A stretch of 64,000 bases of DNA from Chloroflexia bacterium (lineage in GTDB: Bacteria > Chloroflexota > Chloroflexia > Thermomicrobiales > CFX8). Below the pieces are notes generated by a model. It was not told the DNA's origin and ran no database searches. It saw only the letters and a list, made by a program, of their open reading frames with translations. Shown in pieces: positions 2 through 40,608 of this stretch. The translations under genes were made by a program, and so were the position numbers. The first letter of the stretch is position 1; the number at the start of each line of letters is the position of its first letter. The stretch is taken from assembly GCA_030431755.1 (NCBI GenBank), contig JAUIIK010000007.1, positions 2,400-66,399 on the forward strand, in the 5' to 3' direction.

Positions 2-187
2 GCCAGCTACTACACCGGCGCGCTGCGCTGGCTGTCAACCGGCTTGTGTACAAGCGGCGAGCTGACCCATGTCGTGCCGAGCGACGGCCCGCTCGACTAC
101 TGCGAGAGCCGCTGGACCGGCAAGCTGCGCCATAGCCGCGACGGGCAGTGTTTGGCGCACGAGGTCGCCGGTGTGATCCCCGGTTGA
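2..187 (+). CDS. 3' end of a gene truncated by the window edge; Cys-rich C-terminal domain paralogous to that of 5026..8079
   Basis: Frame 2 reads ASYYTGALRWLSTGLCTSGELTHVVPSDGPLDYCESRWTGKLRHSRDGQCLAHEVAGVIPG* (TGA 185-187). By manual alignment 38 of 61 residues match the C-terminus of 5026..8079. Not in the ORF track. Confidence 0.9.
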   Translation, partial: ASYYTGALRWLSTGLCTSGELTHVVPSDGPLDYCESRWTGKLRHSRDGQCLAHEVAGVIPG

Positions 188-200
188 ACGCAGCCGGCGG

Positions 201-1538
201 TCAGGCGCGGCCGCGCGGCCGGAGTGGATTCTCCGGGAGCGCGGCTTGCGCCGGCTGGCTGTCGGATTCAGCGGTCTGCTCGACCGGCGCGATGTGGGCG
301 AAGTAGCCGTAGAAGAGCCCCATCGCCAGCAGCATGAAGAATGCGTAGATCGCGAAGGTCGGATCATACCCCCAGCGCACGATCAGCGCGCCGCCGACCA
401 GACTGGAGATCGAGTAGCCGATGTTCCAGGTGCCGCTGCGGTAGCCGAAGATCGAACGCCGCGCCCGTCCTCGCAACGCGGTCGACATCATCGTGCTCTC
501 CATCGACCAGCCCAAGCCCTGTGACGCCGTCCGCACCATATGGGCCAGCGCAGCCACGCCGAGCGACGGCGCGACGATCAGGAGCAGCATCAGCGGCACC
601 GGCGAAAGGCGTCCGACTGTAATCGCCCGCTCCTGGCCCAGCGCCGCCACGAAGCGCGGCCCGAACAGCGTCGTCCCGGCGGCAAAGATCGACGCGCCGG
701 CAAAGATCAAGCCAATCTGACTGGGCGACGCCCCGACCGAATCGAGGTAGACATTGAAGAAGGGGAAGGTCATCCCCGCGCCGAGGCTCATCAACCCGCC
801 GACTGCCGTGAAAACCACCAGCCGCCGGCGTTGTGTTGGCCCCGGAGGCCGCGGCAATCCACGCCGCTCGCCCGGTTGTCGCGGCGCGACCGGTTCGTCG
901 TCCTCATCCGGGTCGACCATTGGGGCGCGGCGCTCACGCGACATCAGCAGCAGCGGGATCAGCCCGAAGGCTGCCAGGACAATGCCGGCAAAGAGCGCGC
1001 CGCGAAATGCCGTGACGCTATCCCGCTCGACACCGAGCAGCACCCCGGTCAAACGTGGGACCCAACCGCCGATCAGGCTGCCGATCGTCGTCGCGACCAT
1101 CGAGGTCGAGACCGTGAGCGACGCGACCCGCGAGCGGCGGCTCTCATCACTCAACTCGACGACAAATGGCATGACCGTCGAAAAGAGAAACGAGGTGTTC
1201 GCGCCCCAGAGTATCGCGACCGGCAGGATCATCCAGGCCTGGTGCGCCAGCGAAATGACGGCTGAGAGCAGGACAAACGCTATGAGGCTCAGCACGACGA
1301 CACGCCAGACGCCGAAGCGCCCGAGCATCCCGCCCAGCATGAACGCCGTAACGGCCATCGCGAAGGTCTGGAGCGCGCTCGCGAGGCCGATGAAATCCTC
1401 GCGGAAGTCGAGCGCCAGCAGATAGAGGTTGAAGTCAAGGGTAAAGGTCCCGAGGGCGATGTTCGCGCACAGGGTATAGATCAGGAAGAGCCGGGTATCG
1501 CGAGGCACGCCATGCAGGCGCGCGAGCAACGATGCCAT
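201..1538 (-). CDS. Major facilitator superfamily transporter
   Basis: About 12 hydrophobic segments in a 6+6 arrangement with a central hydrophilic loop; motif A-like GGMLGRFGVWR. Confidence 0.88.
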   Translation of the reverse strand: MASLLARLHGVPRDTRLFLIYTLCANIALGTFTLDFNLYLLALDFREDFIGLASALQTFAMAVTAFMLGGMLGRFGVWRVVVLSLIAFVLLSAVISLAHQAWMILPVAILWGANTSFLFSTVMPFVVELSDESRRSRVASLTVSTSMVATTIGSLIGGWVPRLTGVLLGVERDSVTAFRGALFAGIVLAAFGLIPLLLMSRERRAPMVDPDEDDEPVAPRQPGERRGLPRPPGPTQRRRLVVFTAVGGLMSLGAGMTFPFFNVYLDSVGASPSQIGLIFAGASIFAAGTTLFGPRFVAALGQERAITVGRLSPVPLMLLLIVAPSLGVAALAHMVRTASQGLGWSMESTMMSTALRGRARRSIFGYRSGTWNIGYSISSLVGGALIVRWGYDPTFAIYAFFMLLAMGLFYGYFAHIAPVEQTAESDSQPAQAALPENPLRPRGRA

Positions 1539-1602
1539 CCTGGGCTGTCAGCGTCCGATCCGTGCCCAAGCCTCGCCCTGCGCCCGCAGGTGCGGCGGAC
1601 GG

Positions 1603-1611
1603 AGTGTAGCA
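1603..1611 (-). promoter_or_regulatory. Candidate extended -10 promoter of the MFS gene
   Basis: Minus strand TG-C-TACACT about 65 nt upstream of the ATG at 1538. Confidence 0.4.
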
Positions 1612-1679
1612 CGGAGGACCACCGTCCGGTTCATCTCGCGCCCTGCATGTCTATCACCCGCGGCAGGCTAACTGCCTGC

Positions 1680-1688
1680 TGCTATGCT
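1680..1688 (+). promoter_or_regulatory. Candidate extended -10 promoter of the STAND-LuxR gene
   Basis: TG-C-TATGCT about 50 nt upstream of ATG 1741. Confidence 0.4.
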
Positions 1689-1740
1689 GGTCGTATGTCA
1701 TAGGCGCATCGCCCTACTCCATCCGTGCCAGGGGTTCTCT

Positions 1741-4713
1741 ATGTCAGCTCCTCCACCATTCGCCGGTCGGGACCGTGAGATCGGACTTATGAACGCCGCG
1801 CTCGACGCGGCGCTCGGCGGCGAAGGCAGTCTCGCGCTCATCAGCGGGACGGCAGGTATCGGCAAGACGACGCTGGCCGAGCGCATCTGTAGCGCGGCCA
1901 GGGAACACGGCGCGCTGGTGCTTGCCGGCAGATGCTACGACCTGACCGAGACCGCCCCGTTTGGCCCCTGGATCGAGCTCTTCAGCGACTATCCGTCGGA
2001 CAGCGGCCTACCGGACATGCCGAACCACATCGCCGCTTGCGAGATCGACGGCGACATCACCAGCCAGGCCGAGCTCTTCACCAGCATTCATAGCTTGCTG
2101 GCAGAGATCGGGGCCGCGCGCCCGCTCGTGCTCCTGCTCGATGATCAACATTGGGCGGACGACGCAAGTCTGGACCTCTTGCGCTTTCTGGCACGCCAGG
2201 CGCCTGCGTTGCCGCTGCTCATCATCGCCACCTATCGCGCTGACGAGGTCGCGCCGGGGAGTCACCTGGGCCAGCTCCTGCCGCTCCTCGCGCGGGAGGC
2301 GCATCCGTTGCGACTGAACCTTCAGCCGCTCACCTTCGACGAGCTGTGGGCAATTGTCCGGCCGCGCTACCAGCTCGAGCCGGCGGACGAGCGCCGCCTG
2401 GTCGCCTATCTCCAAGCCCGCACCGAAGGCAACCCCTTCTACGCCGTCGAGCTGCTCCAGATGCTCGAAGAAGAAGCGGTTCTCCGCGCTTATGAAACCG
2501 GCTGGACACTCGGCGATCTCGCGAATACGGGCATCCCGCTGCTCCTCGAACAGATCATCAGCGGACGCCTGGCGCAACTGCGTCCGGCTGACCGCCAGCT
2601 GGTCGACATCGCCGCGGTGCTCGGGCAAGCGCCGTCCCGGCCACTCTGGGCAGCGGTCGCAGATGTCACTGAGGGCGAGCTGCTCGAATTGCTCGGCCGC
2701 CCGGAAACCACACGCTTGATCACGGAGACAGACGACGGCACAAGCGCGCGTTTTGTCCACGCCCTGGTCCGCCAGGTCGTCTACGGGCAGCTATCGCCGG
2801 CGCGCCGCAGGCAATGGCACCAGCGTGCGGGAGAGCTCCTCGCCGCAGCTCCGCAGCCTGACCCGGACGCCGTTGCCAACCACTTCCGCCGCGCCGGGGA
2901 TCAGCGCGCGAGCGCCTGGCTGCTGCGGGCCGGGCTGCGGGCCGAACGCGCCTACAGCTGGCGCGCGGCGGCCGAGCGCTTCGAACACAGCATCGCAATG
3001 ACCGACGAGTCAGCAGCGACGCTCGCGCAGCGCGGCTGGCTGCTCATCCGCATCGCCAGAACGTTGCGCTACTCGACGCCGGAGATCGGAATTGAGCGGC
3101 TTGAGGAGGCTCGCGCCATAGCGCGCACAACCGCGAACCGACCGCTGGCCGCAATGGCGCTGGTTCAATTCGGATTGCTCAACTGCCTGCACGGGAACTA
3201 CCGGCGCGGAATCGCAGCGCTGGCAGGTGGCGTCAGCGCGTTCGACGCGCTCCAACCTGGCGACCTGGAACGTGCGCGCGCCGCCGAACCCGTCCTGAGC
3301 TACGCGCCCGGCCCCGATCACGGCCGGGGCATACTGGCAATGTGGCTCACGTTCGCCGGAAGCTTCCAGCAAGCCCTGGCACATGCCCGGTCGCATACCG
3401 TCGAGGCGACTGGCGCAGAGCGCATACGAGGAGAAGGCGGCGACGCATCCGGCGCGGTTGCCTACGCCCAGGCGTTTCTCGGCAATATCGAGGCCGCACG
3501 CGGGGCATTTGCCGGCGCCTACGTCGCGTACCGGGAACAACAGCACCATACGCAGCTGGCGCGCACGCTCATGCACGAGCTGCACCTGGTTGTCCTGACA
3601 TACGAAACCGATGACCTCGCCGGCCGCCGGCACATTGAGAACGAAGCCGAGGCCGCCTGGCAACGTGGCAGCGGCGCATACGCCGAAAGCTTCGCGGGCG
3701 CGATGCGCATGCCACGCCAGTTCATCGAAGGCAACTGGGCGCAGCTCGAGGCCACGGCAATCTCCTTGCGCGCGAACAGCATTGACTCGATGCGCGCCGA
3801 TGCAGTCTGCTGGTTGTGCCCGCTCGCCCGCGCCCAGGGCAATAGTCAGCTCGCCTGGGAACTCGTTGCCGAGTGCCTCCCAGGCGGACCGGCGACAGCG
3901 CCGGGCGACACCAACTTCCGCGCCGCGCGGAGCGCACAACGGACAGCTGCCGAGCTAGCGCTTGACGCGGGCGATCTTCCGACGGCGCGCCGCTGGCTGG
4001 AGGCGGGCGACCGGTGGCTTGCCTGGAGCGGCGCGCTCATCGGGCAGGCTGAGAACGCGCTCCTCTGGGCCGCATACCAACGGGCCAGCGGAGATCCAGC
4101 CGCGGCGACGCTTCACGTCGAAGCAGCGCTGCGCCTGGCCGGCAAGCCACGCCAGCCACTCGCGCTCATCGCGGCCCAACGCCTGGCTGGCGAGCTCGCC
4201 ACTGCCGGCGGGCGCTATGACGATGCGGCAGCTCACATCGAGTCCGCGCTCGCGCTGGCGGAAGCCTGCGCCGCCGCATTCGAACGTGGACTGACACTCC
4301 TTGCCTTGACCGAGCTCGAGCTGGCGCGCGACAACCAGGGCGCAGCCGCCGTCGCCCTGGCCACAGCCAGGGACATCTTCGCGAAGCTTGGCGCGCAGCC
4401 TGCGCTGACCCGCACGGCCGCGCTTGCCGCACGCCTCGACATCGACGGGTCGCCAGCCAGTTCAACAACGCATGACACACAGTTTAAGGCCCCCATCGCA
4501 GCCGTGGACCGCCGCTTGATCGAGGTGCTCTCGCCACGCGAGCTCGACGTGGCGCGGCTGCTTCCGGCAGGTCGCACCAACCAGGAGATCGCGAACCTGC
4601 TCTTCCTGAGCCCCAAGACAGTCGAAGTGCATGTCAGCCGCATCCTTTCCAAGACCGGCTTGCCGAATCGCACGGCCGCGGCCGCCCTCGCCGAGCGCAC
4701 CGGGCTGGCCTGA
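1741..4713 (+). CDS. Large ATP-binding LuxR-family regulator (STAND/AAA_16 ATPase, helical repeats, LuxR HTH)
   Basis: FAGRDRE N-terminal motif, Walker A GTAGIGKT, Walker B LLLDDQHWAD, EGNPF motif, C-terminal LSPRELDV...GRTNQEIA..LFLSPKTVEVHV. Start moved from 1684 to ATG 1741, just before the conserved motif. Confidence 0.93.
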   Translation: MSAPPPFAGRDREIGLMNAALDAALGGEGSLALISGTAGIGKTTLAERICSAAREHGALVLAGRCYDLTETAPFGPWIELFSDYPSDSGLPDMPNHIAACEIDGDITSQAELFTSIHSLLAEIGAARPLVLLLDDQHWADDASLDLLRFLARQAPALPLLIIATYRADEVAPGSHLGQLLPLLAREAHPLRLNLQPLTFDELWAIVRPRYQLEPADERRLVAYLQARTEGNPFYAVELLQMLEEEAVLRAYETGWTLGDLANTGIPLLLEQIISGRLAQLRPADRQLVDIAAVLGQAPSRPLWAAVADVTEGELLELLGRPETTRLITETDDGTSARFVHALVRQVVYGQLSPARRRQWHQRAGELLAAAPQPDPDAVANHFRRAGDQRASAWLLRAGLRAERAYSWRAAAERFEHSIAMTDESAATLAQRGWLLIRIARTLRYSTPEIGIERLEEARAIARTTANRPLAAMALVQFGLLNCLHGNYRRGIAALAGGVSAFDALQPGDLERARAAEPVLSYAPGPDHGRGILAMWLTFAGSFQQALAHARSHTVEATGAERIRGEGGDASGAVAYAQAFLGNIEAARGAFAGAYVAYREQQHHTQLARTLMHELHLVVLTYETDDLAGRRHIENEAEAAWQRGSGAYAESFAGAMRMPRQFIEGNWAQLEATAISLRANSIDSMRADAVCWLCPLARAQGNSQLAWELVAECLPGGPATAPGDTNFRAARSAQRTAAELALDAGDLPTARRWLEAGDRWLAWSGALIGQAENALLWAAYQRASGDPAAATLHVEAALRLAGKPRQPLALIAAQRLAGELATAGGRYDDAAAHIESALALAEACAAAFERGLTLLALTELELARDNQGAAAVALATARDIFAKLGAQPALTRTAALAARLDIDGSPASSTTHDTQFKAPIAAVDRRLIEVLSPRELDVARLLPAGRTNQEIANLLFLSPKTVEVHVSRILSKTGLPNRTAAAALAERTGLA

Positions 4714-4744
4714 ATCCAGGCGACACCGCCACAACACGCAGGCC

Positions 4745-4828
4745 ATTAAGGGGAATCCCTTAATCGCGGACGCCCACGCGCATCCCGTGGGTTTCCCCGA
4801 TGCGCCTACGGCCCCGACTGCCTACGCT
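4745..4828 (+). promoter_or_regulatory. Two operator-like GGG-N4-CCC sites plus a -10 candidate upstream of the secreted protein gene
   Basis: Inverted repeat with perfect 8-bp arms ATTAAGGG-gaat-CCCTTAAT (4745-4764); related site GGG-tttc-CCC (4789-4798); TACGCT at 4823-4828. Confidence 0.55.
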
Positions 4829-5025
4829 GACGGTATGACGAAATCTACCCGGCCATGTCGACGCCGGGCGGGGTGGCGCGAGGGCCCAAGCGACCCGTGC
4901 CGTGTCGTTTTATGCACGCCACCATCATCCGGCATTCATCCAGGTAGATCCGTCTCGATGACTGCGCGGCAGGGCAGCTCCGATCGCTGGCCAATTGCCG
5001 CGAATGAGCTTGAGAGGGAGCACCC

Positions 5026-8000
5026 ATGCGACGCATATCTCACTACGCCCTGGCCTGTTTGCTGGCGCTGGCAGGCGCTACGCTGACGTTGGGAGCCACA
5101 ATCAGCCCCGCCGTCGCCGCGAACGCGACCGTGACGGCCTGCGACGAAGCCGGCTTCGATGCCGCGTTGCAAACAGTGCAGGCGAGCGGCGGCGGCACGC
5201 TCAGCTTCACCTGTAGCGGCACGCTCACCTTCACCGCGGAGAAGACGATCACCTCGCATGTGATCATCGAGGGCGCGGGCCAGGTCACCATCGACGGCAA
5301 TGGCACAACCCGCCTGTTCTACGTGAACTCCGGAGCAACGCTGGATCTGCGCGAGCTGTCGCTCCAGAACGGCAGCGCCGACGAGGGCGGGGCGATCTTG
5401 AACGCCAATGGCACGCTCCGCGTCACCGGCAGTGTCCTGGACAACAACAGCGCGAGCGTAGGCGGGGCCATCGGCAGCGTTGGCAAGGCCACCATCGTCG
5501 GCAGCACACTTCGGGGCAATCAAGCGAACATAGGCGGGGCCGTTATAGCCATCGGAACCCCCACCTTCATAGGCAGCACATTCCAGGGTAATCATGCGAG
5601 CGAGCGCGGCGGGGCGCTCACGCTTGCAGGCATCGTCACCATCGCAACTTCTACCTTCATCGACAACAGCGCGGACACCTTCGGCGGGGCGCTCGAACTT
5701 AACGGCGCCGGCGTCGAAAACGTCGCCACCATTGCAGCGTCGACCTTCGCCGGCAACCGCGCAAACACAGCCGGCGGCGCGATCTCCAATGCGGCATATA
5801 CGTCGATCAACGCAAGCACATTTAGCGGCAACAACGCCGAACACGGCGGCGCGATTGAGAATCGCGCGGGGCTCAACATTGCAAACAGCACATTGAGCGC
5901 CAATAACGGCACGACTGGTGGCGGAATTCTTACGTCCAGCGACCTCGCTATCACCCGCAGCACGCTCAGTGGCAATAGCGCTCAGTTTGGCGCGGCGGTC
6001 ATGCAAGTATCCGGCAGCATTGCCTTCAACCGGACGATCATCGCCAACAGCGCCATGAGCGCAAGCTGCTTTAGTGTGGATGGGTCGATTCTCGGTACCG
6101 ATGTGAATCTCAGCGACGACGCCAGCTGCCCGTTCTCGCTAGTCGGCAGCACAAGCGTCAACCTGGGCCCGCTGCAGGACAACGGCGGCCCGACGCAGAC
6201 AATGCTGCCGCTGGCCGGCTCAGACGCCATCGACAGCGCCAGCTGCACAACGTCCTATCCACTGGACCAGCGCGGAGCCCCACGCCCCCTGCCGCCCGCG
6301 TCAACCTGTGACATCGGCGCAGTCGAAGTCGGCGCGGTCGTGCCCGGCATCCAGATCCTCTTGACCGAGCACGACGGTCCAGTCTCCGAGGGCAGCTCGC
6401 CTGCGATCACGGTCTACACCTACAGCGCAACCGGCGGGAACCTGAGCTATCGCTTCGACTGTGACAACGATGGAAGTTACGAAACACCCGGCAGCGGTGT
6501 CGGCAATACCGGTATCGGGCACTGCACGTTGCTCGACGACGCCAGGTACCCGCTTGGCATCCAGGTCTGCGACGCCAACAATGGCAATGACTGCGTCACC
6601 GCGCTCCACACGATCGTGACTCACAACGTCCGGCCAACAGTCGATAGTCCGATCATCAGCCCGGAGACCTCGAACGAGGGCCAGAGCGTCGCCGTCAGCG
6701 CCACCTTCACCGACCCCGGAACGGACGATACCCACACCTGCACCATCGACTATGGCGATGGCACCGGCGCGCAAGCAGGCACGGTTGAGGCGAACACCTG
6801 CATCGGCCCGAGCTTCACCTACGTTGACGACAACCCGAGCGGCACGCCAGCCGATAGCTACGTCGTCACGGTAACGGTCATCGACGACGATGGCGGCATC
6901 GGTAGAGCCACCGCCGATCACACGGTGAACAACCTCGCGCCCAGTATCAGCGGCGTCTCCAATGATGGCCCGGCCAACGAAGGTTTCCCTGTCACCATCA
7001 CCGTCGCCGCCACCGATCCCGGCAACGCAGACACGCTCTCCTATACATTCGACTGCGATAACGATGGCAGCTACGAGACACAGGGCGCGGGGCATCAAAG
7101 ACAGTGCGTCTTCGGCAATGATGGAAGCTATCTCGTTCCATTCCAGGTCACTGACGACGACACGGGTAGCGTAGGCGGCAACACGACGGTCCAGGTGCTG
7201 AACGCGCCACCAGCTGTTGATCCAGCGCTTGTCGCGCCGGAGGAATCGAACGAAGGCGACAGCGTCACCGCCACGGCCAGCTTCACCGACCCTGGCACCG
7301 ACGATACCCACACCTGCACCATCGACTATGGAGACGGCTCAGGCGCGCAACCGGGAACGGTCGACGGCTATACTTGCACCGGCCCAGCGCACACGTATCT
7401 CGACGATGACCCCACCGGCACCCCGAGCGACGAATACACGGTGACAGTGATGGTCACGGACAGCGACGGCGCAAGCGGCGAGAGCAACCTCCAGCACACC
7501 GTCAACAACGTCGCTCCGGAAATCGAAGGCGTGTCGAGCGCGGGCCCGGTCTCACAGGGGCAGCCGGCAACGGTCAGCGTCGAAGCCAGCGACGTTGGGA
7601 TCAATGACCAGCTCAGCTACAGCTTCGATTGCGACGGCGACAGCAGCTACGAGACCGGCCCGCAGGCCGCGCCTGTGGCCGACTGCCCGCTCGACCCCGC
7701 CACGGCCACGACAACGATCGGCGTCATGGTGGTCGATGACGACGGCGGCACGGCAACGAGCGCCATCGACGTCCACCAGACCCTGACGCTCTGCGGCAGC
7801 TATTACACCGGCGGGCTCACGGGACCGACCGCAGGCGGCTGCGCCAACGGGGCAGTTGCGCTCACGCTCCCGGCCGCGACCGCCACGACGGTCTGCGTCA
7901 ACACGTACACCGGCGCACTTACATGGTCGTCGCAGCCGACCTGCCCCGGCGGCCGGCCCCATGTCGTGCCGGACAACGGACCCTTGCGCTACTGTGAAAG

Positions 8001-8079
8001 CCTCTGGACCGGCGCGCTACGGTACAGCCACAACGGCCAGTGCGCGGCCCATGAATTCGCCGGCGTCATTCCCGGATAG
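5026..8079 (+). CDS. Secreted surface protein: Pmp-like beta-helix repeats, choice-of-anchor Q domain, five PKD/Ig-like modules, Cys-rich C-terminal domain
   Basis: RBS GAGGGAG; Sec-type signal peptide (MRR...AVAA); repeated N.A..GGAI/F.GN motifs; LGPLQDNGGPTQT...DQRG.PR...CDIGAVE; repeated TFTDPGTDDTHTCTIDYGDG and FDCD.DGSYET modules. Confidence 0.9.
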   Translation: MRRISHYALACLLALAGATLTLGATISPAVAANATVTACDEAGFDAALQTVQASGGGTLSFTCSGTLTFTAEKTITSHVIIEGAGQVTIDGNGTTRLFYVNSGATLDLRELSLQNGSADEGGAILNANGTLRVTGSVLDNNSASVGGAIGSVGKATIVGSTLRGNQANIGGAVIAIGTPTFIGSTFQGNHASERGGALTLAGIVTIATSTFIDNSADTFGGALELNGAGVENVATIAASTFAGNRANTAGGAISNAAYTSINASTFSGNNAEHGGAIENRAGLNIANSTLSANNGTTGGGILTSSDLAITRSTLSGNSAQFGAAVMQVSGSIAFNRTIIANSAMSASCFSVDGSILGTDVNLSDDASCPFSLVGSTSVNLGPLQDNGGPTQTMLPLAGSDAIDSASCTTSYPLDQRGAPRPLPPASTCDIGAVEVGAVVPGIQILLTEHDGPVSEGSSPAITVYTYSATGGNLSYRFDCDNDGSYETPGSGVGNTGIGHCTLLDDARYPLGIQVCDANNGNDCVTALHTIVTHNVRPTVDSPIISPETSNEGQSVAVSATFTDPGTDDTHTCTIDYGDGTGAQAGTVEANTCIGPSFTYVDDNPSGTPADSYVVTVTVIDDDGGIGRATADHTVNNLAPSISGVSNDGPANEGFPVTITVAATDPGNADTLSYTFDCDNDGSYETQGAGHQRQCVFGNDGSYLVPFQVTDDDTGSVGGNTTVQVLNAPPAVDPALVAPEESNEGDSVTATASFTDPGTDDTHTCTIDYGDGSGAQPGTVDGYTCTGPAHTYLDDDPTGTPSDEYTVTVMVTDSDGASGESNLQHTVNNVAPEIEGVSSAGPVSQGQPATVSVEASDVGINDQLSYSFDCDGDSSYETGPQAAPVADCPLDPATATTTIGVMVVDDDGGTATSAIDVHQTLTLCGSYYTGGLTGPTAGGCANGAVALTLPAATATTVCVNTYTGALTWSSQPTCPGGRPHVVPDNGPLRYCESLWTGALRYSHNGQCAAHEFAGVIPG
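6625..7509 (+). repeat. Intragenic duplicated PKD-like module (about 6625-6933 and 7201-7509)
   Basis: SNEG.SV...A.FTDPGTDDTHTCTIDYGDG.GAQ.GTV...TC.GP..TY.DD.P.GTP.D.Y.VTV.V.D.DG occurs twice, with near-identical DNA in the core. Confidence 0.85.
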
Positions 8080-8098
8080 ACGCCGACGATCCGACCCC

Positions 8099-8131
8099 GC
8101 CCCGCCCCCGGCAGACGTCCGGGGGCGGGGC
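8099..8131 (+). terminator. GC-rich hairpin, probable terminator of the secreted protein gene
   Basis: Perfect 13-bp stem GCCCCGCCCCCGG/CCGGGGGCGGGGC with a 7-nt loop, 19 nt after the stop; no U-tract. Confidence 0.65.
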
Positions 8132-8210
8132 TCGTGCGTCGCGCAGCGCTACGCTGATCCAGAGACAGGATCACGCAGCGGAGCGGAAATGTTCGTCGTA
8201 CTCTCTGTCT

Positions 8211-8470
8211 ATGGATAGCGATGGACGCCCCGCCGCGCAACCACTGCTGGTTGGCCGACAAGCCGAGCTTGACCGGCTGGCCTACCTGTGGGATCTGGCA
8301 CAACAGGGCACGTGCCGTCTCGTGCTCGTCAGTGGTGCGGCGGGCGTAGGCAAGACGGCGCTGGTTGGCGCATTCGCGCACCAGGTCGCAGCGCAGGCGC
8401 GCAAGTCCACACCGGCGCACACGGCCGGGCAGCCATCACCGCCTACATCCTCAGCAACAATCTGATCTGA
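8211..8470 (+). pseudogene. Internally deleted, frameshifted STAND-LuxR regulator remnant
   Basis: LLVGRQAEL...LVLVSGAAGVGKTAL is the ATPase N-terminus. After a frameshift near 8396 the other frame reads GAQVHTGAHGRAAITAYILSNNLI*, resembling the ATPase continuation fused to the last LuxR helix. Confidence 0.8.
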
Positions 8471-8495
8471 CATCCAACCCGCCAAATAGCGCCGG

Positions 8496-10466
8496 CTAGC
8501 TGCCCAGCGCGGGCGACCAATAGAGCCGCGCGTCTCGAAACTCAACAGTGCCGACACCGGCATTGCGGAGATCGAGACGCGCATGCGTCGTTCCGGCTGG
8601 GCAGATCGTAGCGATCCGGAGGGTGCGCCACTCGCCGTCGTTCGGAACCGTCGCCCCAGCGCCGTCCGGAGCGATCTGGGTCCATGTGCCGTACTCGTCT
8701 TGACAGATCAGGAAGGCGCGCAGCTCTCCGCTCGACAGCGTGCTTCTGGCATCGACCTCGAAGTAGCCCAGCCCTTCGCCAACCTCGACGACAGTCCGCA
8801 GCGTGCTCTCACCTTCGGCATCGCGACTGATGGCGATGCCGTCAGCTAGCGGCTCGACGCGGCCGCCGGCTAGGTCCGAGCGCCAAGTGGCGCTATCTCC
8901 ATCAACGACCGCGAAATCGCCATCGAGCTGCTTCTGATCTCCTGGCGGCTCTCCGGGCCGCACCAGCAGCTCCAGCAGCAGCCGGTCCCGATGACGGCTG
9001 ACGATTACCGGCGCGAAGCCTTCAGCCATGAGCTGGTCGCGCGCGAACGCGCTTTCAGGCGACTCGACATGCACGAACCAGAGCGCTTCCGCTCCGTCGA
9101 TCAGATCCGCTGCGCCGGGCGGCAACTCACCGAAGCCGCCCATCGTGACCTGCTCGGCCTCCTCCAGCTCCGGCGCGTAGAGCTCGATCAGCGTCTCGGT
9201 CACCGCCGGGGCCATCACGACCGGCCAGCCGTAGTCGCCCGTGCGCCCGGCATCCTCGGCCAGGGCGTCCCAGTGTTGCTTGTCGCCTTCGCGGACAGCC
9301 TGCAACGTCACCAGCGACAGTCCGAACCAGGTCACCACGGCGATCGTCGCGACGGCCCTGCCAAGCCGGGTGGTGGTGACGAATGGCGCGCAAGCCACAA
9401 GGGCGCACCAGCCCAGCGTCGCCGGCAGAATCGTTCGCTCAGCGTAGGCCGGACTCAGCAGGCTGAGCGCCGCCGCGATGACGACCGTCCCGCCCGCCAG
9501 TCCGACAGCGACACCAGCGCCCAACAGCGACCTTCTCGCGAGCGCGAGCAACCCCAGGACTGCCACCAGTAGTAGCAGTCCAGTCAGCGCCAGATGCAGT
9601 CCGGTCCAGCGCTCCCACGGCGCAGGCTCACCCCAGTAATAGAGCCCGCGGCCATGCAGCCCGGCGACCGAGAGCAGGGAGCTCTGGATCCGGTCGAGCG
9701 ACACGCCCAGATACCAGGCCCGGTCAGTGCCTTCGCGTTCGGCGCTCGCCAACGCCTGCGGGAGCCAAGGCAGGAACCCGACTACCGCCAGGACGCCCGC
9801 GACAATCAGCGGGACGGCTTCTCGCCGGCGCGTGATGACGATCCAGAGCGCGACGCCAGCTGTCGGTAACAGCGCAAAGATCGCGCTGTAATCGATGTAA
9901 ACGGCGGCCAGAAGCGCGCCGCCGTAGAGTCCCGCCCAGCGCCAGCGCCGGTCGCGCTCGTACTCAATCAACGCCAGGTAGGCCAGCGCAATCGCCAGCG
10001 TCATTGGCGCATATTGCCGCGCCTCCTGGCTGTACCAGAGGTGCAGCGGCGACAATGCCAACAGAAACGCCGCGAGGAGCCCGGCTGCCGGCCGCAGCAA
10101 CCGCGCCACGATGAGATAGAGAACGGCGATCGTCGCCGTCCCGGTCAGGACGCTCAGCAGGCGGCCGGCTTGCAGGTCCGGGACGAACAGTGCCGTCAGT
10201 TTCACCAGCACGTAGTAGAGCGGCGGGTGCGGGTCATACTCGCCGCGCAAGCCCAGCACCTCAACCCACGGCAGCCGAGAAAAGCGCACAGTGAAACCCT
10301 CATCAAGCCAGAGGCTGAGATGATCGAAGCGATAGAGCCGCAGCAGACCGCCGAGCAGCACGCTGCAGACGACGGCTACGCGCATCGCTCCCCGGCTTGT
10401 CCGTAGCTGCGCCAGCCGGCCGCGCCTCAACCCGGCCTTCGACGTTGGAACCTGGCTCAGATCCAA
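8496..10466 (-). CDS. GT-C (family 39/PMT-ArnT-like) membrane glycosyltransferase with a C-terminal beta-sandwich domain
   Basis: LRLY....SLWLDEGF, HPPLYY, SP.H.WYSQEARQY motifs; many TM segments; C-terminal W....V.F.DARL pattern resembling carbohydrate-binding modules. Confidence 0.88.
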   Translation of the reverse strand: MDLSQVPTSKAGLRRGRLAQLRTSRGAMRVAVVCSVLLGGLLRLYRFDHLSLWLDEGFTVRFSRLPWVEVLGLRGEYDPHPPLYYVLVKLTALFVPDLQAGRLLSVLTGTATIAVLYLIVARLLRPAAGLLAAFLLALSPLHLWYSQEARQYAPMTLAIALAYLALIEYERDRRWRWAGLYGGALLAAVYIDYSAIFALLPTAGVALWIVITRRREAVPLIVAGVLAVVGFLPWLPQALASAEREGTDRAWYLGVSLDRIQSSLLSVAGLHGRGLYYWGEPAPWERWTGLHLALTGLLLLVAVLGLLALARRSLLGAGVAVGLAGGTVVIAAALSLLSPAYAERTILPATLGWCALVACAPFVTTTRLGRAVATIAVVTWFGLSLVTLQAVREGDKQHWDALAEDAGRTGDYGWPVVMAPAVTETLIELYAPELEEAEQVTMGGFGELPPGAADLIDGAEALWFVHVESPESAFARDQLMAEGFAPVIVSRHRDRLLLELLVRPGEPPGDQKQLDGDFAVVDGDSATWRSDLAGGRVEPLADGIAISRDAEGESTLRTVVEVGEGLGYFEVDARSTLSSGELRAFLICQDEYGTWTQIAPDGAGATVPNDGEWRTLRIATICPAGTTHARLDLRNAGVGTVEFRDARLYWSPALGS

Positions 10467-10575
10467 TTGACGCCCCCGCTTCCCCGCAGATCATAATAGG
10501 AAGGGCTCAGCCTCGCGCAGGGTCGCGCGGTTGAGCCGGGCGCTGGTCGGAACATGCACGCAATAGGAGGCACGC

Positions 10576-10863
10576 ATGACACTGCAAGCACAGTCAACGG
10601 TCCAGGCGGACAATGAGCGGGTGCGCGTTACCCGCTGGAGCTTCGGGATCGAGGCTGAGACCGGTTACCACCGGCACGAGTACGACTACGTCGTCGTCCC
10701 GCTCGCAACCGGCCGGCTGAAGCTCATCGGCCCCGAGGGCGAGGAGACGTTCAGCGAGCTCGAAGCGGGCGTCTCTTACTACCGCGAGGCCGGCGTCGAG
10801 CACAACGTCATCAACGCCACCGCCGGCCCATTTGCCTTCGTTGAGATCGAGCTGAAGGCGTAG
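10576..10863 (+). CDS. Cupin domain protein (BauB-like)
   Basis: RBS AGGAGG; DNERVRVT, G.H.H..DYVVVP, GVEHNV.N, F.FVEIE.K. Confidence 0.85.
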   Translation: MTLQAQSTVQADNERVRVTRWSFGIEAETGYHRHEYDYVVVPLATGRLKLIGPEGEETFSELEAGVSYYREAGVEHNVINATAGPFAFVEIELKA

Positions 10864-11046
10864 CGGTCAAACGACCTTATGTCATTCTGACCGGGGCGAT
10901 CAACATCCACCGTTCCTCACTGATCGACGAGGATTTCACGGCAAACACGCGACACGTCGGCTAGATCCTTCAGCTCCGCGGAGCCGGAGCCTGCCCTGAG
11001 CGCAGTCGAAGGGGTCAGGATGACTCCAATGGTTGTTTGGCCCCTC
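10861..11046. repeat. REP/MITE-like palindromic element (GTCAT...ATGAC family) containing a GAGCCTGCCCTGAGCG.AGTCG.AGGG unit
   Basis: Arms GTCATTCTGACC / GGTCAGGATGAC extended by imperfect outer arms; the same internal unit recurs near 48100. Confidence 0.65.
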
Positions 11047-11193
11047 AGAAATAGAGTCGAATGCCGATCCAAATTCAATCCGTGCCGTCGGATTGTGCAG
11101 CGGCACATCCGAGGTCGGCCCCACTCTCGATATACTGGATTCAAAGGGAAAGCACAGCCCGGGAGCGGTAGGGAGCCGGGCGGACGGAGGGAC

Positions 11194-13185
<1,992 letters not shown>

Positions 13186-13197
13186 GGGATTGGGGAA

Positions 13198-13280
13198 GGG
13201 AAGAGGTAACAGGAAACAGGTAACAGGGAAACAGCCGTTTCTGGATCTTCCCTCTTCCCTCTTGCCTGTTACCTCTTCCC
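13198..13280. repeat. Intergenic hairpin built from short (about 7-nt) purine/pyrimidine repeats
   Basis: Perfect 16-bp arms GGGAAGAGGTAACAGG / CCTGTTACCTCTTCCC enclosing AACAGG and CTTCCCT units. Confidence 0.75.
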
Positions 13281-13307
13281 TACACAGGGGAGGAATGAAC
13301 GCAGCAC

Positions 13308-16660
<3,353 letters not shown>

Positions 16661-35830: not shown

Positions 35831-38800
35831 CTAATCGGCGTCTGGGACGAAGAAGCCGAGCAGGAGGTCGATGTGTTCGGGCTGGATCAGTCCGGCCGCG
35901 AGCGCTGGCGAGACCGAGCCGACGACGCGCGCCCGGATCTCGCCGGTGTCCAGCGGCTCCTCTGGATCGAGGTAGCCCGCGTCGCTCAAGTAGGACCGGA
36001 AACTCTCCACGTAGTCGGTACGCATACGAGGAACCGCGCCGGAATCCAGCCGGCGCAGCAGCGCCTCGGCATCGCCACGGGCACGGTCCGCCTGCTCGAT
36101 GACGCGCTCGACAAAGGTCTCAGTAAAGGCCCCAGAGTCAAGCACCGCCGCGCGGTCGACCGGGCGGCCGTGACCGACGCGGCGAGCGCTGATCCCGGCC
36201 GCGACGACGTCGGCCCGCGCTTGCGCCACCTCAAAGACTTCGTACTCGATGAATTCAGCGCCGCCGTAGGCCATCAAGGTCTTCAGCTGACCCCAGGTCG
36301 AGATACCGTGCGTGAGCAGGCGGTGGAGCTGATCGACGTCTCGGACGAGATACCAGAGGTGGACGCTCTCGACATCGTTGCGCGGGTCGATCAGCGGCAC
36401 ACCAAGCAGCTCGCGGTAGGCGCGATGGCTTGAGCCATTCGGAGCGGCGACGCTTGGCGCGGGCAGCGGCAGCTCTTCGAGCGCCGAGCGCTGCTCGGAT
36501 TCCGCCAGCTGCCGGACCTCGGCGAGGCTAATGACTCCGTAGTCGAGGTCGTCCTGTTCGGCCAGCATCCGCCGCCACTTGCCGACTTCATCGTGCTGAG
36601 CAGTGAAGTAGAAGACCTGGCGGCCGCTGCGGCTGATCTCGCAGACGGCCCGGATGATCGCCTCCGCCCGGTGCTCGTCGGCATTGCCCAGCGTCTCGTC
36701 CAGGATCAGCGGCAGCTTGGGGCCGTGCTCCATCTCCTCGACGAAGGCAATCCGCACCGCCATAAGCAGCTGGACGCGCGTTGCGCTCGACAGCTCGGAG
36801 AGGCTGTGGTTGATGTTCGTCGTGGTGTCGAGAGCGCGGAAGGCGGGCTCTGGGTCGTCGTCGAACTCGAGCAAGTAGCGGCCCTGGGTCATCCGGACAA
36901 AGAGATCCCGGGCACGGTGGAAGACCTGTGGCCGGTCGTTGTCGCGGGTCTGCTGCCGGACGTGCTCCGCCAGTGACCAGCCGGCCGCGAGCCGGTAGCC
37001 TTCGTCGCGGTTCGAGCGCAGGGTATCACGGGCAAGCTCCTCGTCAACGAGCGCCTGTTCGAGGTTGCGTTCGCGCTTGGCGTCGGCGACGTGCGTTTCG
37101 ATCTCGACGATCCGCCGGTGGAGCTCTTCGGCCTGTGCCGCATCCAGCCGGCGCGTCTCAAGCTCCGCCTCTAGCGCGGCGGCCGGACGCTCGGCCAGCT
37201 GCCGCTCGTCACCGAGCTCAATGAGCGCCTGACGGGCGGTGACGTCAGCTTCCTCGACCGTCTTCCGGGCATGCAGGTAGGCGTCGCGCTGTTCGAGCCA
37301 GTCAGCCAGCCTGCGCTCGTCGCCCTCGTCAAGATCAAGGTCCTTGAAGATCGCAGCACGCTCTGCGGCGATACGCGCCAGCTCCGGCGCAGTCTGGTCA
37401 CGGGCGCTCTCCGCGTTACGGCGCTTGATCCGGGCTGACTCTAGCTGCTGGAGACGTTCGTCGAGATTATCGACGTAGCCCATGATTGGCGCGTGCGCCT
37501 CCGACGGCGCGTAGCCGACGGCCGCAAGGCTGTTGTTCAGGGCGTCGAGGAGCACGGCGTGCCGCTGGTCTAGCTCCATGACCCGTTGTTCCGCCGCCGC
37601 GAACCGGGTGTCGGCCTCCTGCCAGCGGTCGAGCTGCTGGGCCAGGGTATGGAGCTCGGTGGAAGCGATCTCGTTCAACCCCTGCGCGGTCAGCGCCTCG
37701 CCCCAGACACGCTCGCTCTCAGCGTGCGCCGCCGCTGCTTGCTGCCAGCGCTCTTCGAGGTCAGACCACCGTTCGGCGCGCACCCGCGCCAGCTGCTGCT
37801 GGTGGAGCTGCCGGCCAAGCTCCTCACCCAGCCGTTCGACGTGCTCAACGGTCCAGCCCGGCGGCTGTGACAGCCCGAGGCGCAGGTACTCATCCTGGAA
37901 GTGTGAAGCCCGGCTCGTCGTGGTTGCCGGCTTGGGCCGGAAGATCCAGCCGAGGACAAGCGGGGCGGGCGCGAGGAGGATCAACCCCAGCAACACCGGG
38001 TGTCCGGCGATCCCGGCCACCAGCGCCAACAGCGCGATCAGACCGGCCGCGACAATGAGCGGAACCCAGGCGACCGGCGCGCTGGTTGCGGTGGCCGGCG
38101 CGCCGCTGGAGCGCAGCCAGCCATTGAGCTGCGAGATACCACGCTGCAAGCGTTCGATGTCGCCATAGTCAGCCGGTGCGCCAAGCCAGCCGCGCAGTGC
38201 CTCGGCCGCGTCGAGCTGCGCCTGCGTTTGCTCGAATTGCCGGGCAAGCGTCACAAGCTCGCGCAAGCCTCCGGCTTCGAGCCGCCGTAGCTGCGCCTCG
38301 TCAATCTGCTGGCCGAGCTGCCGGGCGGCACGGTCCCGGAGCAGGCCCTGCTCGTTGCGCTCGTCTTCGGCACGGGCCAGACTACCGCCGAGCTCTTGCA
38401 GCTGCCGGGACTGCTCTTTGAGCGCCGCCAGGGAGCCCGCCGGTAACTCAGCGCCTTCCAGGCCGCTCCGCGCGATCTCGGCGGTAGCAGCCTCGATCTC
38501 GGTGTCGTGCTGGCGCGCACGCTGTTCATATTCGAGACGGCGCGCATCCAGCTCCGCGAGCCTCTCCAGCTCGTCGCCGAAGAGCAGCGCGATACTCTCC
38601 GGCAGTGCCGCCAGAGTATCCTTCGCAACTTCAAGCTCCTGCTGGCGCTGCCGGGCGACAAGCGCCCGCTCCAGCAACGCGACGCGCGCGCCTGACTCCC
38701 GTGCCTGCTCGTACTGGCCTCTCAGATCGTCCAGATCACGCTGCTCGCGCAGTAGCGCGTCTTGCGTCTGTCGAGCGTTCTGCGTCTTCGCGCGGGCCTC

Positions 38801-39289
38801 ATTTAGCCGGCCGATGTTGCCCCTGGGCTGCGTTGGGCGCTGACGGTAGCCAAGCTCATCGCGGGCAGCAGTAACGTCGTACCCGCCGGCGGATTCACGC
38901 AGGATCACGCCGGCGAAGTCGGCGTTGTCAGCCTGCAGGAGGTCGTGCAACGTCAGCACGTAGCGGTCGCGGAAGTCGCTGGCGTCGAGCGGCAGGCTGG
39001 CCGCCTCGCTGCCGTCCTGTCGGGCACGGCTGACGCCGGCGTCGACCTCGACATCCCAGGCCGAGCCATCGAGGTCGATCTGGGCGGCCAGCGAAGCGCG
39101 GGACCAATCGGGCAGGTCGTTCCAGAGCAACATCTGCAAAACCAGCGCCGTCGTCGACTTGCCGGAGGCGTTCGGCCCGTAGGTGATGTTGATCCCGGCG
39201 GTCAGATTCTCGATTACGAATGGCGTCTCGATACCGGGCGTTCGCCGGACGTCGAGCCGGCGGAAGACCAGCGCGGATCTGCCGCTCAT
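35831..39289 (-). CDS. YhaN-like SMC/Rad50-type ATPase with coiled coils and a central hydrophobic hairpin
   Basis: Walker A GPNASGKST, long heptad regions, signature ELSSATR, Walker B LILDE; ATGA overlap with the upstream nuclease gene. Confidence 0.88.
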   Translation of the reverse strand: MSGRSALVFRRLDVRRTPGIETPFVIENLTAGINITYGPNASGKSTTALVLQMLLWNDLPDWSRASLAAQIDLDGSAWDVEVDAGVSRARQDGSEAASLPLDASDFRDRYVLTLHDLLQADNADFAGVILRESAGGYDVTAARDELGYRQRPTQPRGNIGRLNEARAKTQNARQTQDALLREQRDLDDLRGQYEQARESGARVALLERALVARQRQQELEVAKDTLAALPESIALLFGDELERLAELDARRLEYEQRARQHDTEIEAATAEIARSGLEGAELPAGSLAALKEQSRQLQELGGSLARAEDERNEQGLLRDRAARQLGQQIDEAQLRRLEAGGLRELVTLARQFEQTQAQLDAAEALRGWLGAPADYGDIERLQRGISQLNGWLRSSGAPATATSAPVAWVPLIVAAGLIALLALVAGIAGHPVLLGLILLAPAPLVLGWIFRPKPATTTSRASHFQDEYLRLGLSQPPGWTVEHVERLGEELGRQLHQQQLARVRAERWSDLEERWQQAAAAHAESERVWGEALTAQGLNEIASTELHTLAQQLDRWQEADTRFAAAEQRVMELDQRHAVLLDALNNSLAAVGYAPSEAHAPIMGYVDNLDERLQQLESARIKRRNAESARDQTAPELARIAAERAAIFKDLDLDEGDERRLADWLEQRDAYLHARKTVEEADVTARQALIELGDERQLAERPAAALEAELETRRLDAAQAEELHRRIVEIETHVADAKRERNLEQALVDEELARDTLRSNRDEGYRLAAGWSLAEHVRQQTRDNDRPQVFHRARDLFVRMTQGRYLLEFDDDPEPAFRALDTTTNINHSLSELSSATRVQLLMAVRIAFVEEMEHGPKLPLILDETLGNADEHRAEAIIRAVCEISRSGRQVFYFTAQHDEVGKWRRMLAEQDDLDYGVISLAEVRQLAESEQRSALEELPLPAPSVAAPNGSSHRAYRELLGVPLIDPRNDVESVHLWYLVRDVDQLHRLLTHGISTWGQLKTLMAYGGAEFIEYEVFEVAQARADVVAAGISARRVGHGRPVDRAAVLDSGAFTETFVERVIEQADRARGDAEALLRRLDSGAVPRMRTDYVESFRSYLSDAGYLDPEEPLDTGEIRARVVGSVSPALAAGLIQPEHIDLLLGFFVPDAD

Positions 39290-40608
39290 CGCGCCGCCTC
39301 CTTCTGGGCCACAAGCGTGTCGAGCAATGTCCGCGCTTCGGCCAGCAGCAGCCGCTCGGCATCGGCCCGCCCGGGCTCAGCGTCCGGCGAGATCCTGGCG
39401 AACGAGGTCGAGCCATGGATCGTGCGGAGCTCGCGCGCCGTCACCGTAATCAGACCGGCGTACTCGGCGTCCGGATCGCCGGCTTCGAGCGCCTGAATGA
39501 TTCGGGCCACCTCGCCTGGCGGGTCGTTGCGCCGGGCCAGCGCGTCGAGATCGAGCGCCGGCTGGGTGGCGATCTCGATACGCTCGATGACCGCCTCAGC
39601 GCCGCCCGCGCCGGGCACCCGCAGGTCTTCCTCAGCCAGCCGGGCGATAGCCTGTAACTCGCGGTGAAGTGGCGTCCGACCGATCAATCGCAAGCGGCAT
39701 GACAGGCAAGCCAGGCGGTCATAGCGGTGCGCTTCCTCGGCCAGCGCCTCCCGCAACGCCCCAACAATCTTCGAGCGCACAGCGTCGGCATCGGCGCAAT
39801 CCGAAACGTCGATGTCGTGGGCGAGGTAGCAGGCGGTCGAGAGCGGCACGCGGCGCGTCGCGACCCGTCCAGAGCCGTCGATCGTCGCGATGACCGCGCC
39901 GTGGACGCCCGGCTCGCCGGGATCCATGGCCTGGGGCGTGCCAGGGTACATCACGACCAGCGCGCCGTCGTCGACGAGTATCGACTGACCGTGGATATGC
40001 CCAAGCAACCAAAGGGCAACCGGTTGCCGGCGCAATTCAGCGAGTGTGACCGGACCGTACTGGCTGCCGGGTTGGTCCAGATCAGCGTGGAGCAAGCCGA
40101 GCACCGGAGCCGTACCGGCCGGCAGATCGTAGCTATCAAGGGCGCAGTCGGGCACATGCTCGCGCGGGAAGGACCAGCCGTCGATGTGGAGCACGGGCTG
40201 TCCCTCGCGCTCCAGCGTATGGCGCTCCCACCGGCCACCCCCGCCGAGAAGATGGAAGCCGTCGAGGTCGAGCGCCGCGGACAGTTGCGGCAAGACATCG
40301 TAATCGTGGTTGCCGGCGACGGCGAAGGTCGCGATGCCGGCGGCGGAGAGCTGCCGCAACCCGCGTTCAAGCGGCCCGACCGCCTCGAAGTAGCGGTTGG
40401 AGCGGTCCACCAGATCGCCGCTCAGGGCGACGATGTCGACGCGCTCGCCGATGGCCGTCTCGACGATGGCATCCCACGCGCCCGCGCCCGAGTGCTCCGG
40501 GCCGCTGTAGGCGTCCGTCAGGCGGCTGGAGCGCCGGCCGATATGGAGATCGCCGGCACAGAGTATTCGGATCGCATTACCTGACATTATCCCCACATTC
40601 CCGGTCAT
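39286..40608 (-). CDS. YhaO-like Mre11/SbcD metallophosphoesterase DNA exonuclease
   Basis: GDLHIG, SGDLVD, GNHD, LLHAD, LGHIH, YPG.PQ..D.GE.G. Alternative start 40587. Confidence 0.92.
   Translation of the reverse strand: MTGNVGIMSGNAIRILCAGDLHIGRRSSRLTDAYSGPEHSGAGAWDAIVETAIGERVDIVALSGDLVDRSNRYFEAVGPLERGLRQLSAAGIATFAVAGNHDYDVLPQLSAALDLDGFHLLGGGGRWERHTLEREGQPVLHIDGWSFPREHVPDCALDSYDLPAGTAPVLGLLHADLDQPGSQYGPVTLAELRRQPVALWLLGHIHGQSILVDDGALVVMYPGTPQAMDPGEPGVHGAVIATIDGSGRVATRRVPLSTACYLAHDIDVSDCADADAVRSKIVGALREALAEEAHRYDRLACLSCRLRLIGRTPLHRELQAIARLAEEDLRVPGAGGAEAVIERIEIATQPALDLDALARRNDPPGEVARIIQALEAGDPDAEYAGLITVTARELRTIHGSTSFARISPDAEPGRADAERLLLAEARTLLDTLVAQKEAAR

Follow-up and report, generated by a model that had tools for sequence, protein, structure and literature searches.

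A cysteine-repeat terminal domain shared by a family of exported proteins in a Thermomicrobiales genome: a candidate surface-retention module

We analysed a stretch of 64,000 nt (the window) from a Chloroflexia bacterium of the Thermomicrobiales (GTDB group CFX8; GenBank assembly GCA_030431755.1, contig JAUIIK010000007.1, positions 2,400 to 66,399 of the forward strand; contig C145 in our numbering). Two neighbouring genes at the start of the window encode proteins that end in the same domain, referred to here as the Cys-repeat domain, which consists of three tandem units of ∼32 residues with two cysteines each. The first gene is represented in the window by its 3' end, and the second is complete and encodes an exported protein of 1017 amino acids (aa). 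The features of this region are as follows.

2..187, + strand: 3' end of the upstream paralog (last 61 codons and stop), holding unit 3 of the domain in full and the greater part of unit 2
201..1538, − strand: major facilitator superfamily (MFS) transporter gene, between the two domain genes
1684..4713, + strand: gene of a LuxR-family STAND ATPase regulator (Pfam AAA_16, E 7e-28; GerE, E 5e-16), between the two domain genes
5026..8079, + strand: gene of the 1017-aa exported protein, with signal peptide, PMP-like beta-helix, choice-of-anchor Q domain, PKD region and Cys-repeat domain
5026..5118, + strand: signal-peptide-like N-terminus, residues 1-31 (basic start, hydrophobic core, A-V-A; assigned by reading and a heuristic)
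5122..6159, + strand: passenger region resembling PMP repeats and a right-handed beta-helix (Chlam_PMP, E 1.5e-4, residues 239-255)
6160..6330, + strand: choice-of-anchor Q domain, residues 379-435 (NF041518, 66.5 bits against a cut-off of 25, E 1.8e-18)
6331..7770, + strand: PKD-repeat spacer region (PKD_4, E 2.9e-19, three stretches, the best at residues 726-826)
7783..7884, + strand: Cys-repeat unit 1, residues 920-953 (Cys 923 and 939)
7885..7983, + strand: Cys-repeat unit 2, residues 954-986 (Cys 957 and 973)
7984..8076, + strand: Cys-repeat unit 3, residues 987-1017 (Cys 990 and 1006), with the stop directly after it at 8077..8079

A first-pass annotation, made from the sequence of the window by itself, had reported that the frame at 2..187 and the 1017-aa protein share a conserved C-terminal domain, and both frames and the domain are present as claimed. 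The window sequence confirms the frame at 2..187 as described: it encodes 61 aa (2..184, followed by the stop at 185..187), of which 38 out of 58 aligned residues are identical to the end of the 1017-aa protein (E 1e-25). It is no separate small frame but the 3' end of a longer gene that reaches upstream beyond the window (C145:28-2586); this gene encodes at least 852 aa, is cut by the contig edge, and is a paralog of the gene for the 1017-aa protein (48% identity over 597 aa, comprising the PKD region and the terminal domain). Of the 57 aligned codons of the two window copies, 18 are identical, 20 differ synonymously and 19 differ non-synonymously, with a nucleotide identity of 115/171. This codon-level split, together with the nucleotide identity, indicates that both copies are old and that their similarity is held at the protein level; the earlier statement that the protein sequence is conserved rather than freshly duplicated holds.

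The Cys-repeat domain makes up the last 98 residues of the 1017-aa protein (residues 920-1017; 7783..8076). By direct reading, the motif C-x3-[YW]-T-G-x-L-x7-C that had been proposed for three tandem units fits all three of them. The units are also homologous to one another: when each unit of 41 genomic domain copies was aligned separately and the unit alignments were compared by hhalign, the probabilities were 98.2, 96.7 and 96.3% (E from 5e-14 to 2e-9). The protein stops 11 residues past the sixth cysteine, and direct reading of its C-terminus finds no LPXTG motif, no transmembrane or hydrophobic segment and no basic tail, as the first reading of the sequence had it.

The domain is found throughout the genome. 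We searched the assembly (5.15 Mb in 272 contigs, 97% complete) with the C-terminal 99 residues of the 1017-aa protein and obtained 56 matches at E ≤ 0.01, which fall into 52 reading frames on 27 contigs. In 43 out of these 52 frames the domain is at the frame end (this count takes in one 53-aa remnant and one frame running off its contig), and in the other nine it is N-proximal, just behind a signal-peptide-like segment (four large proteins on contig C12, and those on C232, C228, C263, C137 and C19). Of the 43 frames whose 5' end is intact, 39 begin with a signal-peptide-like segment by a heuristic of our own. Of the 52 genes, 24 are within 3 kb of another copy; contig C219 has ten of the genes, C218 and C272 have five apiece, and C12 has four. 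The 53-aa remnant (C209:43977-44138) has only unit 3 followed by an unrelated tail and is probably a decayed copy; on C272, an open reading frame (ORF) for a PMP-like protein (6057-7232) overlaps a short domain-bearing ORF (7213-7917) in a different frame, and the pair looks like one paralog split by a frameshift or an assembly error.

In a protein database, a profile of 41 sequences was searched against 1.84 billion cluster representatives; 278 proteins scored at E ≤ 0.001, of which 178 reached 1e-10 and 17 reached 1e-30. Among 150 stored relatives that were re-found by hmmsearch, the domain lies within 25 residues of the end in 144; of the rest, four have it near the N-terminus and two are short fragments. 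One listed protein (P0131, 2931 aa, with 22 matched stretches) is an unrelated cysteine-containing protein with a different repeat and was left out of the counts. The distribution is narrow. All four other genomes of the same genus carry the domain (12 to 55 matches, E ≤ 0.001), a second genus of the family has one genome with 35 matches, and a third has a single degenerate copy in one out of three genomes; the domain is absent from the other 13 genomes of the family and from 21 genomes of four other families of the order, and none of 400 further genomes sampled across the phylum has it at E ≤ 1e-5 (12 candidates scored per genome). Among the genomes searched, the domain is confined to three genera of one Thermomicrobiales family, a lineage in which it has expanded massively. 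A search with 10 close sequences gave 10 good loci in three metagenome-assembled genome (MAG) records of Thermomicrobiales/Chloroflexia; a 20-residue match in Microbacterium (E 5e-4) was dismissed. A variant in the second genus (locus L088, G009:C69; genus g6) keeps the six cysteines and the terminal position and has N-Q-W-[TN]-G in each unit, a pattern that only faintly resembles the QxW signature of ricin-type trefoils.

These counts bear out most of what had been predicted from the two window copies. The expected genome-level family of exported proteins exists, with 52 frames (and signal-peptide-like starts in 39 of 43 intact ones, by the heuristic), and the domain is usually C-terminal, as foreseen (43/52 frames here, 144/150 database relatives). 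The search of this genome, of the kind that had been proposed as a check, gave many hits, mostly at the C-termini of proteins with a signal-peptide-like start. The upstream gene had been considered as a possible full-length paralog with the domain on no other protein; there are about 50 other carriers.

The domain has no name that we could find. No Pfam or NCBIfam model covers it in the two window copies at E ≤ 1, and it is likewise uncovered in all 52 carriers (Pfam at E ≤ 0.01, NCBIfam at E ≤ 0.001) and in 76 database relatives (Pfam). The 41-sequence profile has no match among PDB sequences at E ≤ 10, and the ESM Atlas gave no usable match to the domain. We found no description of it in literature listings on choice-of-anchor proteins and on surface proteins of Thermomicrobiales and Chloroflexi, and one close relative is named at source only 'choice-of-anchor Q domain-containing protein [Thermomicrobiales bacterium]'. 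The first-pass annotation had not recognized a named family, and the look-up in Pfam, NCBIfam and PDB sequences agrees. The Cys-repeat domain appears to be a previously unmodelled, lineage-restricted extracytoplasmic domain of ∼100 residues.

Its passengers are varied, with one class in the majority. The choice-of-anchor Q model (choice_anch_Q; NF041518, NCBIfam) matches 35 of the 52 domain-bearing frames, and of the 36 matches of this model in the whole genome 35 fall in such frames; the sole exception is a protein that stops right after choice_anch_Q. In 28 of these 35 frames at most 10 residues separate the end of choice_anch_Q from the start of the Cys-repeat domain, and in the other seven, the window protein included, a PKD-containing spacer of 190-480 residues lies in between. 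Other carriers in this genome are a M66/reprolysin-like metalloprotease with PKD, a FG-GAP/PKD protein and three small proteins (341, 341 and 380 aa) in which Pfam matches nothing, and the N-terminal type is found on Big_9/cadherin-like plus beta-helix proteins and on one collagen-repeat protein. Passengers of the 76 database relatives outside this genome are mostly PMP-like beta-helix and PKD by Pfam, and also include the X25 pullulanase domain, PI-PLC-X, beta/gamma-crystallin and Ig-like domains. The variable passengers that had been inferred from the two window proteins are therefore real, but their range is narrower than implied, since 35 out of 52 belong to the choice-of-anchor Q/PMP-like beta-helix class.

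In a tree of the domain, the M66-like protease and two passenger types without a known family nest among the domains of the beta-helix carriers, and the N-terminal forms fall in three separate places; this tree (FastTree, 48 sequences of this genome, ∼100 columns, midpoint-rooted, without support values) is suggestive only. Taken together, the tree and the passenger range show a mobile module. The Cys-repeat domain is an autonomous module on adhesin-like proteins exported by the Sec type of signal peptide, mostly C-terminal and sometimes right after the signal peptide.

The position behind choice_anch_Q is informative. 'Choice-of-anchor' refers to surface proteins that end in alternative anchors, as described for the A type in 10.1101/2023.03.06.531300, and by analogy the same meaning may be carried over to the Q type. 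Sister genomes without the Cys-repeat domain have fewer choice_anch_Q matches (0 to 9), in proteins that end differently. An example is a choice_anch_Q protein of a sister genus (genome G014): behind a Pro/Thr-rich linker it has LPATG, then a hydrophobic stretch and finally a basic tail, and its gene adjoins that of a sortase. Because this protein carries an LPATG signal at the corresponding place, the Cys-repeat domain appears to sit in an anchor slot.

An AlphaFold2 model of the domain built on a 41-row alignment is confident (mean predicted local distance difference test score, pLDDT, 87.1, with no residue below 70; predicted template modelling score, pTM, 0.73) and shows a compact all-beta fold of nine strands, three per unit. 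The structural search that had been suggested alongside the model found no significant PDB neighbour: Foldseek gave nothing at E ≤ 0.001 (best E 1.3). The best match in an exhaustive VIA-align comparison is 3q7y_A (Z 4.8, 84 residues aligned with a root mean square deviation of 3.6 Å), and actinohivin (3a07_A, Z 4.1) and a carbohydrate-binding module of family 13 (CBM13; 1knl_A, Z 3.8) were also found; a second structural search gave the same picture (best Z 4.7). Most of the 50 matches listed are beta-trefoil proteins by title: the titles that we take to be of this class are designed Symfoil/ThreeFoil, actinohivin, ricin-B-type lectins, CBM13, CBM92, fascin, FGF and MIR domains. Since Z values below 5 are within the noise of the tool, we go no further than naming the three-fold beta-trefoil as the nearest known architecture.

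All six cysteines are kept in 163 out of 171 distinct full-length domain sequences. Two of the 171 lose both cysteines of unit 2 together, and six lack one aligned cysteine, at least one of these through a small alignment shift. The cysteine pair within each unit has a regular spacing of 16 residues. Because of this spacing and the paired loss, each unit is probably held by a disulfide of its own once exported; a VKOR homologue, for forming disulfides outside the cytoplasm, is encoded in the genome.

The envelope in which the carriers would be displayed may have a single membrane: Omp85/BamA was not found in the 97%-complete genome by a search that detects it in seven diderm control genomes, which fits a monoderm organization and makes a role in outer-membrane secretion unlikely, as no such translocation step seems to be needed. 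SLH domains were not found in any of 20 family genomes, the 52 carriers have no wall-binding domain of Pfam or NCBIfam, and a crude pattern search of the genome gives only about one convincing LPXTG-type tail. Sortases are encoded by 17 out of the 20 family genomes, with three copies in this one, so that the idea of the Cys-repeat domain as a replacement of sortase anchoring was rejected.

We tentatively favour the reading that the Cys-repeat domain is a position-independent, disulfide-stapled module which would bind an envelope component non-covalently and so keep its carriers on the cell surface, in analogy with the triple repeats discussed below. About 50 cargo proteins would be exported by Sec-type signal peptides, each unit would then be closed by its own disulfide, and the domain would bind an envelope component, probably a glycopolymer, without a covalent bond; the carriers may thereby be held on the cell surface as with SLH or CWB2 triple repeats in other monoderm bacteria, with the Cys-repeat domain filling the slot that LPXTG or other anchors take behind choice-of-anchor domains. 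The nine N-proximal copies among 52 argue for a free-standing binding module of this kind and against a C-terminal sorting signal such as LPXTG or the C-terminal domain (CTD) of the type IX secretion system (T9SS). The first-pass annotation had proposed envelope attachment, secretion targeting or oligomerisation by a common C-terminal module; the family of exported proteins with a mostly C-terminal domain is borne out, envelope attachment is plausible, and the same nine copies speak against the logic of a C-terminal sorting signal. By kind, we infer a modular surface-binding domain, for which retention on the envelope or binding of a sugar polymer seems the most likely role. A more specific version is possible and rather doubtful: the domain may be the cargo tag of an undescribed surface-display system restricted to a few Thermomicrobiales genera, a minimal trefoil-like, disulfide-stapled lectin of three 32-residue units that docks ∼50 adhesin-like proteins per cell onto a lineage-specific glycopolymer. 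If this version is true, SLH and CWB2 would be joined by a fourth kind of triple-repeat wall anchor, from a phylum with a poorly understood envelope.

Among known systems, SLH domains are close in logic: they are three tandem repeats, N- or C-terminal on many exported proteins of one genome, that anchor non-covalently to the envelope, with units of ∼55 residues that are helical and free of cysteine. The Cys-repeat domain is likewise a three-repeat terminal module on many different exported proteins of one genome, but there is no sequence match to SLH (PF00395) in the 52 carriers (E ≤ 0.01), and its units of ∼32 residues are all-beta with two cysteines each. In the wall proteins (Cwp) of Clostridioides difficile, as PMC4973711 describes, three non-identical tandem CWB2 motifs are needed together and anchor the protein to the polymer PSII. 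Three tandem repeats across a protein family follow the same genome-level logic; there is, however, no Pfam match to CWB2 (PF04122), size and predicted fold differ, and the ligand and anchoring of the Cys-repeat domain are predictions. The wall-binding Pfam accessions that were tested for come from PMC3415414, and none of CWB2 (PF04122), CWB1/choline-binding (PF01473), LysM (PF01476) and PG_binding_1 (PF01471) is found in the 52 carriers or the 76 relatives. Dockerin (PF00404) has no match in these two sets either; cohesins were not separately searched for.

The Cys-repeat domain shares with sortase signals its position, behind choice-of-anchor Q as the LPATG of the sister-genus protein, but it is folded, lacks the motif, the membrane-spanning segment and the charged tail, and apparently also works N-terminally. 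Neither NCBIfam nor Pfam has a sorting model (T9SS CTD, PEP-CTERM, GlyGly-CTERM, etc.) that matches the 52 carriers, and the nearest sorting-related matches are partial, sub-threshold ones to rhombotarget A in the beta-helix only (in the window protein, residues 80-198 within 5122..6159). The passengers resemble the polymorphic membrane proteins (Pmp) of chlamydiae in their Chlam_PMP/POMP repeat matches and in forming a large paralogous family. Pmps end in an autotransporter beta-barrel; here neither Omp85 nor a barrel is found, and the proteins end in the Cys-repeat domain. The domain belongs to none of the known anchor families tested, and it appears to be unmodelled in Pfam, NCBIfam and PDB sequences.

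Several observations weigh against surface retention as we have set it out. Envelope binding and its ligand are predictions, plausible as they may be, and foreign surfaces might just as easily be the target of a lectin-like module on adhesin-like passengers. The likeness to trefoils does not rise above the noise level of the aligner itself (Z < 5), and the disulfide pairing would follow from just the spacing and two cases of joint loss. The presence of sortase does not anticorrelate with the domain across the family. A comparison of 145 ORFs lying no more than 5 kb from domain genes with 20 loci of other genomes revealed no co-occurring partner or envelope-polymer gene; antisense shadows or fragments of the paralogs themselves were the sole recurrent matches. 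Finally, the terminal module is barely better conserved than the beta-helix (mean pairwise identity 0.52 versus 0.43).

The first of the rival explanations, which we consider unlikely yet the best of them, is that the domain is an outward-facing lectin or carbohydrate-binding module, recognizing a polysaccharide or glycoprotein on other cells, flocs or substrates and serving adhesion or substrate targeting. It draws on structural neighbours dominated by beta-trefoil lectins and CBM13/CBM92 modules, on the three-fold repeat, in which every unit conserves an aromatic residue ahead of T-G, on relatives with enzyme or starch-binding passengers (PI-PLC-X, X25 pullulanase domain) and on a placement at either terminus that is typical of CBMs. 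The beta-trefoil lectins and CBM13 are likewise compact, all-beta and internally repeated three-fold, and theirs is the only fold class recurring among the neighbours. Every fold match has Z below 5, however, and no lectin or CBM model of Pfam matches (the ricin-type model with the (QxW)3 signature included, for which the 52 carriers and 76 relatives were searched). Compared with those of a trefoil, the units have ∼32 rather than ∼40 residues and three rather than four strands (nine strands in the model against 12, barrel plus cap, in a beta-trefoil), and a disulfide in each unit is no trefoil hallmark. Most passengers are non-enzymatic beta-helix/PKD proteins, which would then lack the means of staying on the cell, and the domain sits where relatives carry a cell anchor.

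A role in oligomerisation, cross-linking or capping is less probable still: the domain would join the beta-helix proteins in a surface layer or matrix, possibly through disulfide exchange, or would just cap and stabilise the passenger. The ∼50 paralogs with 24 of 52 genes within 3 kb of another, the six conserved cysteines and the direct junction with the choice_anch_Q/beta-helix end in 28 of 35 frames would suit such a role. The domain is, however, also found after PKD spacers of 190-480 residues, on proteins that are not beta-helices and at N-termini, so that it is not a helix cap, and the even, unit-wise pattern of cysteines suits internal disulfides. A C-terminal sorting or secretion signal, which a dedicated machine would read and might cut off, as with T9SS CTD, PEP-CTERM/exosortase or LPXTG/sortase, would fit the extreme C-terminal position (43/52 and 144/150), the place after choice-of-anchor Q (a domain named for preceding sorting signals) and the restriction to a few genera often seen with sorting systems, but is very improbable given the N-terminal copies behind signal peptides (9/52 here and 4/150 among database relatives), a folded 100-residue unit without transmembrane segment or tail, the failure to find Omp85 and the lack of a conserved candidate processing gene near the clusters in this or other genomes.

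Surface retention, if it is the role of the Cys-repeat domain, would concern a group, the Chloroflexota, whose envelopes are poorly characterised, and it was in Firmicutes, Actinobacteria and diderms that the known modules for surface anchoring were defined. Roughly 1% of the genes of this lineage carry one terminal domain that annotation pipelines leave nameless, and naming and modelling it would improve the annotation of these MAGs. A labelled form of the domain could serve as a probe for the envelope component bound, and protein engineers may find interest in a very small three-fold all-beta scaffold with one putative disulfide per unit. With 278 representatives in 1.84 billion proteins, the distribution is narrow, which limits the impact.

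The neighbours of the domain genes were examined with Pfam. The 27 neighbours covered include LuxR-type STAND/TPR regulators beside several clusters, FG-GAP proteins and transporters of the MFS and ABC types; none is a candidate for a sorting enzyme, and apart from paralogs, LuxR-type regulators alone recur. Genes of large STAND ATPase regulators lie next to many domain clusters, at the following positions.

Window 1684..4713 and C29:1406-4375: AAA_16 with GerE (LuxR-type)
C219:3230-5635, C219:24755-27124 and C65:12853-15210: AAA/NB-ARC with TPR and GerE (LuxR-type)
C222:21880-25212: BTAD type with TPR

Their presence suggests that each cluster of domain genes may have its own regulatory switch.

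Other proteins near the domain genes have terminal modules of their own. On contig C219, four tandem or nearby secreted FG-GAP proteins of ∼790 aa (7222-14415 and 37570-39945) are interleaved with Cys-repeat genes and share among themselves a conserved C-terminus that has two cysteines. Three signal-peptide proteins of 337, 317 and 949 aa on the same contig (6190-7203, 36605-37558 and 14452-17301), without a Pfam match, have another C-terminal module of ∼90 residues in common, and in two of the three cases an FG-GAP gene follows directly downstream; these proteins look like carriers of a second shared terminal module without a name in this genome. In the window, the gene of the 1017-aa protein is followed by a convergent gene (8496..10466, − strand) for a 656-aa membrane protein with a PMT_2/GT-C glycosyltransferase domain (E 3.6e-14) and a long C-terminal extracytoplasmic part.

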